Source: an uncultured Chthonomonadaceae bacterium (GTDB taxonomy: Bacteria > Armatimonadota > Chthonomonadetes > Chthonomonadales > Chthonomonadaceae). From it: a stretch of DNA of 17,828 bases. The notes under the pieces were generated by a model, which was not told where the DNA came from, ran no database searches, and was given only the letters and a program-made list of their open reading frames with translations. Location of the stretch: NCBI GenBank assembly GCA_963835065.1, contig CAWIEK010000055.1, forward strand, positions 1-17,828. Reading direction: 5' to 3'. The first letter of the stretch is position 1. Every line of letters begins with the position of its first letter. Both the position numbers and the translations under genes were made by a program. Below are positions 1,367 through 2,845 of this stretch, one piece after another.

Positions 1367-1460
1367 CGAACCATCAACATTTCGGGTGACTGCTCCACTT
1401 GCAAATGCAAGCGGCTTTTATCCCGTCTCAACGGGAACGCTGTGCAGTCCCACAGCGGCA
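1367..1460 (-). ncRNA. TnpB omegaRNA (reRNA): 3' scaffold plus guide; 5' boundary not determined
   Basis: Minus-strand hairpins GCTGTG-GGACTG-CACAGC (1456-1439), TCCCGT-TGAG-ACGGGA (1436-1421) and CCGCTTGC-ATTT-GCAAGTGG (1414-1395), then AGCAGTCAC. The loop GACTG can pair with CAGTC next to the end (pseudoknot). The guide would be the flank from 1385 downward, CCGAAATGTTGATGGTTCG. Confidence 0.75.
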
Positions 1461-2619
1461 ATACCATTCTCCACAAAGTCTTGGAAGCCTTCCGGCACAC
1501 TCATCTTGAGTGACCGTAATGCCGCATGGAGAATGTTGGTAGCGGCATTGATGTCCCTATTTAGCGACAAGCCGCATTGTGGGCAATCATGCCAACGTTT
1601 CGATAGGTTCTTGGGAACATGGCAGCCACAACCGGAACACATCTGACTGGTGCCGCATGGATTTACAGCCATCATCTGCCGACCGGCTCTTGCAGCCTTC
1701 TCCGACAAAACGCGATGGAACAAAGCCCATGCCGCATCCCCTATGCTCTTGGCAAGGCAATGGTTGCCTTGCATGTTTTGATACGAAGATTTTCAACCGC
1801 AATAAATCCAAAGCGGTTGACCAACTTTCTGGCTGTTTGATGCGCAAAGTTGTGTCGGCGGTTTCGGATGCGCTCATGGATGCGACGTACCACTTTTTGC
1901 GCCTTCGCTCTCGCCTTGCTGCCCTTTTTCTGCTTATTGTGCTTGCGTTGAGCGGTCGCAAGAGCCTTTTCTTCCTTGCGGAAGAAGCGGGGATTGTCTA
2001 CAAACTCTCCATTTGAAAGCGTGGCAAACTTTGACAAGCCAACGTCTATGCCAACCTGTTCCTGACTTTCCGTAAGTTCTTCTTTTTGTACTTCGTAGCA
2101 TAAACAGGCGTACCATTTATCACCCTGTCGCCGAACCGTACAGGTTTTCAGTATTCCCTCCACTCGCCGATGCACGACTGCTTTGATAACGCCAATTTTG
2201 GACAACGTGACAGTGTTGTTTTCAACAGTAAATCCCCTCTGCGGATAGCAGAAACTATCATACTGCTGTTCGCTCTTGCTGCGCGGATAACCGGGCCTGT
2301 CGCCTTTTTCAATTCTGCGAAAAAACGCGGAATAGGCCAACTCAACCCGTCGTACTACATCTTGCAGGGTCTGACTGAAAACGGCGCTCAACTCCGGGTG
2401 CGCGGGAGAAAGGTCGGAGGTAAATTGCTTCTTCCATATTGGTAAAGCCGCTTGCTGCTCGTGGCGCGATACAGACTTATGTTCCGTTTCCCAGGCATAC
2501 TTACGCCAATGAAGAAGCGAGTTGTATACTTCGCGGCATATATTCAGCGTCCGCCGCAAAATGGTTTCCTGCGCCGCAGATGGATACAAGCGAATTTTAG
2601 AACACAGGTGAAACAGCAT
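1386..2619 (-). mobile_element. IS200/IS605-family tnpB-only element (IS1341-like); right end at 1386, left end unresolved (somewhere in 2620-2808)
   Basis: tnpB followed by a typical right end, AAGCC-hairpin-GGAGCAGTCAC, ending in the tetranucleotide TCAC. No tnpA (Y1 or serine recombinase) ORF is present in the window. Confidence 0.75.
1418..2619 (-). pseudogene. tnpB: RNA-guided endonuclease TnpB, split by a 1-nt frameshift (about 400 aa if repaired; may be a sequencing error)
   Basis: KIRLYPS..Q N-terminus, V.SQTLQ, RuvC-I VGIDVG, RuvC-II IAVENL, zinc finger CSGC..CPQC, RuvC-III RDINAATNI. Adding one base to the T4 run at 1776-1779 restores ENLRIKNMQGNHCLAKSIGDAAW. Confidence 0.92.
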
Positions 2620-2696
2620 CAGAAACGTTCCGGTTATGAGAGCGCAATCTTGATGTAATAAACAACAATTCACGCAAAATTAGGAAAGTGTCTGCC

Positions 2697-2761
2697 AAAC
2701 AATAAATCGGCATAGCGTTCTTCCTACCCTTACTATGAAGTAGAAATTTCACTATGCCGAT
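2697..2761 (-). terminator. Long hairpin after tRNA-Asn (intrinsic terminator or element left-end hairpin)
   Basis: ATCGGCATAG (2706-2715) and CTATGCCGAT (2752-2761) form a perfect 10-bp stem. An inner wobble stem TTTCTACTT/GGGTAGGAA forms on the minus strand, followed by TTATTGTTT. Confidence 0.55.
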
Positions 2762-2773
2762 GGGGAGTTGGTA

Positions 2774-2845
2774 CTCCCTGTGATGGACTCGAACCATCAA
2801 CCCTTCGGTTAACAGCCGAATGCTCTGCCATTGAGCTAACAGGGA
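2774..2845 (-). tRNA. tRNA-Asn (anticodon GTT); CCA not encoded directly after the discriminator
   Basis: Sequence TCCCTGT TA GCTC AATGGCA GAGC A TTCGG CTGTTAA CCGAA GGGTT GATGG TTCGAGT CCATC ACAGGGA G folds into a complete cloverleaf. Confidence 0.97.

Follow-up and report, generated by a model that had tools for sequence, protein, structure and literature searches.

A TnpB gene beside tRNA-Asn with a predicted fixed guide matching the tRNA-Asn allele of its relatives: a candidate allele-discriminating, homing-like nuclease

The window considered here is the whole 17,828-nt stretch of DNA that was analyzed, contig C55 of assembly G000 (8.0 Mb, 71 contigs). It contains a tRNA-Asn gene and, downstream on the same strand, a tnpB gene, with the following features in the direction of the minus strand:

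2921..2950, minus strand: sigma70-like promoter, TTGACA-18-TATCAT, upstream of tRNA-Asn (11/12 match to consensus)
2774..2845, minus strand: tRNA-Asn(GTT), the linked, probably immune allele (ARAGORN, Rfam)
2809..2813, minus strand: GTTAA of the anticodon loop, the predicted TAM position (from the sequence, and because related mobile elements have TTAA before their left ends)
2790..2808, minus strand: site in the resident tRNA that resembles a protospacer, identical to the guide at 17/19 positions; guide positions 6-7 are mismatched, at 2803 and 2802
2709..2758, minus strand: long hairpin after the tRNA (z -5.7; z -5.0 in G002 and -6.3 in G001)
1418..2619, minus strand: tnpB, encoding an IS200/IS605-type RNA-guided nuclease (NCBIfam NF040570, guided_TnpB; Pfam PF01385/PF12323/PF07282, OrfB_IS605)
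1386..1460, minus strand: omegaRNA 3' scaffold and right end, with three stems and the end GGAGCAGTCAC
1367..1385, minus strand: predicted fixed guide, identical at 19/19 positions to the tRNA-Asn allele common in the family
685..1323, minus strand: downstream metallophosphoesterase gene (Pfam PF00149), a neighbor only

The tnpB product is clearly related to TnpB of ISDra2 (E 2.5e-53). In the window the gene is split by the loss of 1 nt near 1776, and the preliminary description held that the protein would need repair. This proved mistaken, since contig C47 of the same assembly, a second haplotype, contains an intact reading frame of 400 aa with the RuvC triad D192, E276, and D356, so that no repair is required for study of the protein. 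The extra base at the frameshift point is also present in contigs from two other public runs. Among the strain variants listed, 16 of 22 changed codons are synonymous, compared with a proportion of 0.22 expected by chance, and by this measure tnpB is under purifying selection among strains.

The gene is transposase-less, as originally described: no Y1 transposase adjoins it, and the four Y1 matches of the genome are all on other contigs. Multiple copies with varied flanks are also absent, there being one locus on two haplotype contigs. A left-end motif is found in neither of the two tRNA-linked loci (the window and a second species, G001, treated below), vs. 15 of the 23 other loci listed. As in IS605 elements, the right end bears an omegaRNA scaffold with three conserved stems; a consensus fold of eight homologues has compensatory changes in 11 of 21 pairs, and the single-sequence fold has a z of -2.4. 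The DNA upstream of tnpB is the tRNA hairpin rather than TTAA, and the guide differs from the junction that the element's own empty site would form. Because the hairpin is also present in G002, which has no tnpB, it is part of the tRNA locus and not an IS left end. The distance from tRNA-Asn to the tnpB start codon is 154 nt in the window and 110 nt in G001, and the promoter upstream of the tRNA, the one site found in a search in which shuffled sequences average 1.6 sites, would be a possible source of read-through transcription into tnpB. The immediate neighbors of the module encode the phosphoesterase, a GNAT protein, and LpdA; there are no Tn7-like genes among them, and no CRISPR array among the repeats of the window.

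Contig C47 is 98.4% identical to the window over 7269 nt. This is typical of the assembly as a whole, in which approximately 232 kb in 28 contig-pair alignments diverge by about 1.7% and represent two co-assembled strain haplotypes. The cassette itself has only two differences in 1648 nt between haplotypes. We considered such homogenization as a sign of recent homing and dropped it, given that about 10% of windows from the haplotype pair are equally similar (368 of 3739 sliding windows; 11 of 127 non-overlapping ones). Other public data bear on the same locus. In run X2, from another study, a contig runs from the tnpB start to the 3' end of the tRNA and differs at 15 positions over approximately 270 nt. 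In run X5, a contig is identical to the 3' part of the immune tRNA and continues into 523 unrelated nt with no coverage of tnpB, which is not proof of its absence; the immune allele may therefore occur without the nuclease. The target allele was not seen in conspecific DNA. Two genes past the phosphoesterase, C47 also encodes a D12-class adenine methyltransferase and a SacI-like restriction endonuclease (L001:2233-4317), at a spot that may vary between strains because the first 68 nt of the window are divergent from C47.

The right end of tnpB has the terminal sequence GGAGCAGTCAC, with 1386 as its last base. The 19 nt past it (1385-1367, minus strand) are identical at 17 positions to tRNA-Asn at 2808-2790, and the match begins directly past the GTTAA of the anticodon loop. 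Assuming equal base frequencies, the chance of a 17/19 match is 5.8e-9 per position, 3e-7 in the adjacent tRNA, and 2e-4 anywhere in the window. The right end and the match that had been read from the window at the outset were thus reproduced, and the accompanying claim that the rest of the tRNA 3' half is not duplicated was borne out by comparison past the guide length: in both species the match ends at 17-19 nt and is followed by divergence, with no further tRNA sequence. Flanks of this kind are not a general property of related elements. For 25 other related TnpB elements used as controls, the first 19 nt past the right end matched their own upstream DNA at 11-14 of 19 positions and the tRNA allele at 1-9 of 19, and a tRNA-matching flank was present in none of the 25. 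The 19-mer was also considered as the attR of an integrated element, a reading that is excluded by its start exactly at the right-end TCAC in both species, without the anticodon loop; att-like duplicates in relatives instead span the D-arm to beyond the tRNA 3' end. A second guide-like site, on contig C43, consists of a right-end remnant and a tRNA-like 17-mer, but its register is off by 4 nt and neither tnpB nor a tRNA is nearby, and we attribute it to chance, as we do a neighboring match with four mismatches that lies within a coding gene. IS605 right-end remnants without tnpB occur in the genome at L064:5170-5205 (on C43) and near 70344 on C19.

The alleles of tRNA-Asn in relatives give the guide a different meaning from that of a match to its neighbor. 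Forty-one other genomes of the family were surveyed, 34 of which had a matched tRNA-Asn; the seven without one were G001 and six genomes that are 64-87% complete. In 20 of the 34, tRNA-Asn is identical to the guide at 19/19 positions, and in 11 it shares guide positions 1-11 and has distal mismatches, positions 1-11 being common to 31 of 34. The other three, all from one other genus, have the seed-mismatched allele of the window, and no tnpB was found beside it at the two of these three loci that were fetched. Across the relatives more broadly, tnpB was found at none of 30 tRNA-Asn loci fetched (of 34), although some of these contigs stop within a few hundred bases. The genome of the window itself contains no perfect target, as its three tRNA-Asn genes score 17, 17, and 16 of 19, and no cleavable target was found in either host (the window genome or G001). 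The preliminary description had the guide target the adjacent tRNA-Asn. A tRNA-Asn target stands, while the adjacent copy as its aim does not, the allele of relatives being the one matched at 19/19.

The closest relative of G000 is G002, with an LpdA 95% identical, compared to 85% for G001. It has a perfect-target tRNA-Asn allele with a homologous promoter and hairpin, without tnpB or the guide. The linked tRNA of the window differs from that allele by 3 nt, one of them a base adjacent to the D-stem and the other two at guide positions 6-7. ISDra2 TnpB no longer cleaves when double mismatches fall at positions 1-12 (PMC10097598), and the adjacent tRNA copy, which is mismatched in this seed, is probably the immune one. 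A seed-mismatched allele is present beside 2/2 cassettes vs. 3/34 relatives (Fisher p 0.016, with kin that are not independent), and the linked alleles of the two cassettes carry different seed mismatches. At L002:2275-4287 (C49 of G000) and L034 (C4 of G002), at least 16-17 tRNA genes stand in an array with a tyrosine integrase after them, and the tRNA-Asn of both arrays is also seed-mismatched to the guide; that of C49, which has the same GG, could have served as a conversion template. The genes downstream of tRNA-Asn vary in nearly every genome examined, and in one (G257, L118) they include an XhoI-like restriction enzyme and a methylase.

The order of parts recurs in a second species, G001: tRNA-Asn, a hairpin homologous to that of the window, an intact tnpB, the right end found in the window, and the guide. 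Its TnpB is 61% identical to that of the window over aligned columns, and its 17-nt flank is identical to the window guide at 16 of 17 positions. The genes flanking the G001 module are unlike those of the window, and its metallophosphoesterase homologue is unlinked, approximately 1.7 Mb away. The G001 guide matches another allele of the family, for example that of G015, at 17/17. In contrast, its linked tRNA, the sole CTGTTAACCG match in this 97%-complete, 3-contig genome, disagrees with the guide at positions 4-6 and 13-14 and shows compensatory changes in its anticodon stem; the own-locus match of 13/19 is no better than the background of 11-14/19. The recurrence of the same tRNA linkage with nearly the same guide supports the proposal, made from the window alone, that this is a fixed tRNA-targeting TnpB module and not a randomly inserted IS. 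The immune alleles of the two species differ, so tnpB and the tRNA were not transferred together between them.

The arrangement is rare. The pattern of right end plus guide was found in two species among the 401 genomes of the phylum that were scanned, and had no matches in viral contigs or in metagenome contigs. Further pattern matches in G095, G389, and G085 are due to chance, as none has tnpB or a tRNA and those of G095 and G389 are inside ORFs. A protein scan of genome contigs added one further, unlinked relative. A tRNA was present at none of 23 related loci (20 metagenome loci of the clade and three genome loci), several of which are on short contigs. It had been expected that homologues would lie beside tRNA genes with matching flanks; G001 conforms to this and the 23 related loci, which have no tRNA, do not, so the tRNA-linked arrangement is a derived state of a small lineage and not a property of the family. 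In a TnpB tree built by a quick method, both linked proteins fall in one seven-member clade (support 95), yet are not sisters. Genomic context within the clade covers four members, the two linked proteins, L068, and L069, the other three being P0074, P0094, and P0101; L068 and L069, sister-clade proteins, have unrelated flanks and no tRNA linkage. Within the genus the distribution is patchy, with the module present in G000 and G001 and absent from G002, the sister of G000.

Related mobile elements offer a clue to the TAM. Under the IS608 rule, bases of the insertion site pair with 4 nt at the foot of the left-end hairpin, and the related elements begin after TTAA or TTAC in step with these 4 nt. 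The sister mobile element L069 begins directly after TTAA, and L004, L006, L007, and L092 after TTTAA. The tRNA has G at position -5, whereas each of the four TTAA elements in which this base is visible has T, which counts against GTTAA. In ISDra2 TnpB, a helix with Y52 and S56 reads TAM position -1 (PMC10097598). The helix that matches it by alignment is RHEQQAALP in one linked protein and RFEQQAALP in the other, resembling that of the TTAA elements L069 and L092 and unlike that of TTAC elements, and the loop that reads -4/-5 (YPQ) resembles that of elements with a variable -5. Together these give only a hint that the TAM may be (G)TTAA in the tRNA anticodon loop.

Our preferred explanation, which we hold with a little less than even confidence, is that an immobilized TnpB with a fixed predicted guide, lying behind a seed-mismatched tRNA, would cut canonical tRNA-Asn DNA and spare its own allele, favoring its own locus in the manner of a homing endonuclease. 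It builds on what is observed directly: the layout of the locus, the match and mismatch of the alleles, a catalytic triad that is intact, the conserved module of a second species, and purifying selection on tnpB among strains. The omegaRNA would be processed from the tnpB transcript so as to include the 19 nt, the resulting RNP would recognize a (G)TTAA TAM in the anticodon loop, and the double seed mismatch would confer self-immunity. A canonical allele might meet the cassette in one cell via DNA uptake, transduction, or conjugation; it would then be cut and either lost or repaired from the cassette, so that the immune tRNA and tnpB are copied or retained. The module probably arose when an IS605 element with a TTAA preference inserted in a tRNA anticodon loop and captured the tRNA 3' half as its guide, with later loss of the left end and retention of only the guide-length part of the flank. 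The layout like that of intronless homing, the SegB precedent discussed below, and the patchy distribution within the genus favor homing, while the lack of a homing signature between haplotypes, the X5 immune allele, and the differing immune alleles of the hosts speak against it. In its most far-reaching form, which we put forward tentatively, the proposal is of a naturally occurring, RNA-guided drive acting between alleles of a bacterial chromosome, in which a domesticated TnpB aimed at the anticodon-loop/T-arm region of an essential tRNA would have forced independent, structure-preserving recoding in two lineages, and would spread or persist by cutting the canonical allele. The module is real, conserved, and probably active.

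The same molecular step, cutting of the canonical allele, is shared by the main rival, a defense reading, in which the allele-discriminating cut would destroy integrative elements with canonical tRNA-Asn att sites, or phages that carry tRNA-Asn, and the module would be kept for protection of the host. We consider this possible, if on balance unlikely. It would explain the purifying selection seen where every strain has the immune allele, and haplotype C47 encodes a restriction-modification pair two genes downstream. Two relatives, G015 and G411, have partial tRNA-Asn duplicates that cover TTAA and the whole protospacer: in G015 (L045, L100) a tyrosine integrase follows the full tRNA-Asn and a recombinase domain follows the partial copy, and in G411 (L101, L102) the full and partial copies are of the integrated-element type. 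Because of these att-like duplicates, tRNA-Asn is considered an integration site in the family; however, they are present in only 2 of 34 genomes. The viral data are similarly divided. Thirteen viral contigs have TTAA plus guide positions 1-11 in a tRNA-Asn, and six of these tRNA-Asn score 18/19 (five differing at position 13 only and one at 12 only). On the other hand, the exact 19-nt target is present in no viral contig, viral tRNA-Asn more often has the immune seed (93 vs. 13 stretches), and a single fixed guide would be easily escaped.

Less probable still is that the 19 nt are a relic. In this scenario tRNA-Asn was interrupted after TTAA by an IS605 element and a complete tRNA was then restored on the upstream side, so that the 19 nt are what survives, in decay, of the displaced 3' half. 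The exact register at guide base 1 would then need no selection, and the frameshift in the window's copy of tnpB would be unsurprising. Decay is difficult to reconcile, however, with flanks that are 16/17 identical between species whose proteins are 61% identical, and with the loss in both of everything past the guide length. The intact triad, the mostly synonymous strain variants (among those listed), and the compensatory changes in the scaffold stems likewise argue against it, and we regard this origin for the present state as improbable.

Partial guide matches can permit binding without cutting, and the 17/19 site lies within the probable transcription unit upstream of tnpB, so that TldR-like regulation of tRNA-Asn, or autoregulation of a tRNA-tnpB transcript via the partly matched site, could be imagined; but the preliminary description's option of binding the host locus without cutting is disfavored because RuvC D192/E276/D356 is intact and the host allele is seed-mismatched, and with a G001 own-locus match of 13/19, equal to background, against 17/17 for a foreign allele, we consider it very improbable.

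Comparison with known systems places the module near several families. With ISDra2-type TnpB-omegaRNA it shares the protein family, a scaffold overlapping the 3' end of the gene, a guide in the right-end flank, and a T/A-rich 5' motif (PMC10097598; PMC13565253). It differs in having neither TnpA nor a left end and in occupying a single locus; moreover, its guide corresponds to a conserved site approximately 1.4 kb away in an essential gene instead of its own empty site, and discrimination of self from non-self would rest on substitutions instead of presence of the element. Known TnpB systems of this type carry out restorative homing or plasmid gene drive (PMC10097598; PMC13565253; PMC11870625). 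In the literature, PMC11870625, PMC11656645, and the Cas12r preprint come nearest to the module. Among protein-guided systems, SegB of phage T4 cuts tRNA genes and thereby spreads its region (PMC2330249), and in intronless homing, substitutions in a conserved gene close by set the self allele apart (PMC13565253). The module resembles SegB and other free-standing homing endonucleases in the position of a nuclease gene beside tRNA genes and in a predicted cut in the conserved T-arm region of a tRNA (PMC2330249; PMC13565253). Two traits of free-standing homing endonucleases are thus seen in it, a nuclease gene near a conserved target and an own allele substituted at the recognition site. Unlike the enzymes of T-even phages, it is an RNA-guided TnpB and not a GIY-YIG protein, and is located on a bacterial chromosome and not in a phage. 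No GIY-YIG, HNH, or LAGLIDADG recognition is present, the protein being a TnpB, and the module is homing-endonuclease-like but no member of that group.

The original comparison with CRISPR-associated transposons was partly apt. Type V-K and I-F systems use delocalized crRNAs to home near tRNA genes, and the module likewise has a dedicated, fixed guide at a tRNA locus (PMC11656645). The fixed tRNA-directed guide stands, but the Tn7 machinery is missing and the analogy is therefore loose: the module has no Tn7 transposase or CRISPR repeat, its nuclease is apparently active, and its guide avoids the resident allele. Cas12r-CRISPR of Thermus Lalka phages is also a TnpB-derived nuclease, proposed to act against tRNA-gene integrators (10.64898/2026.04.20.719267); it is phage-borne with CRISPR arrays and targets the interiors of elements, whereas the module has one omegaRNA-type guide to the tRNA itself. 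TldR repressors, like the module, are immobilized TnpB proteins with a conserved guide (PMC13565253), but TldRs are nuclease-dead and target promoters, whereas the module has an intact triad and a target within a tRNA gene. The module is not a member of IS605 proper, nor of the TldR, CAST, or protein-guided homing endonuclease families.

TnpB protects its transposon by cutting the empty insertion site, and the role of most immobile TnpB genes is largely unexplained. Such genes make up 89% of TnpB clusters in a census, in the main text of which the word "tRNA" does not occur (PMC10691335). A 2026 review divides TnpB homing into restorative, IStron, and plasmid types, and no intronless type was found in the parts of it available (PMC13565253). 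More generally, we found no account of a TnpB whose fixed guide is directed at a tRNA allele in the literature, as represented by title listings and the openings of abstracts, with few subscription journals. The module would provide a concrete job for an immobile, catalytically intact TnpB, namely to discriminate between self and non-self alleles of an essential gene that is conserved. It would be either an RNA-guided counterpart of the intronless homing of phages or a one-spacer immunity against tRNA-integrating elements, the latter a step between transposon maintenance and CRISPR-like defense. It also suggests that RNA-guided conflict can shape the evolution of tRNA sequences. Natural sequences are available for both alleles, both guides, and the intact protein.

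Elsewhere in the window, a gene for a BMP-family ABC substrate-binding lipoprotein extends over two overlapping frames (5145-6294, plus strand), possibly owing to another 1-nt indel of assembly or strain. Short intergenic or inverted repeats are found at 580-700, 3201-3290, 4922-5130, 6410-6485, and 17017-17140, and those at 3201, 4922, 6410, and 17017 also occur on other contigs.
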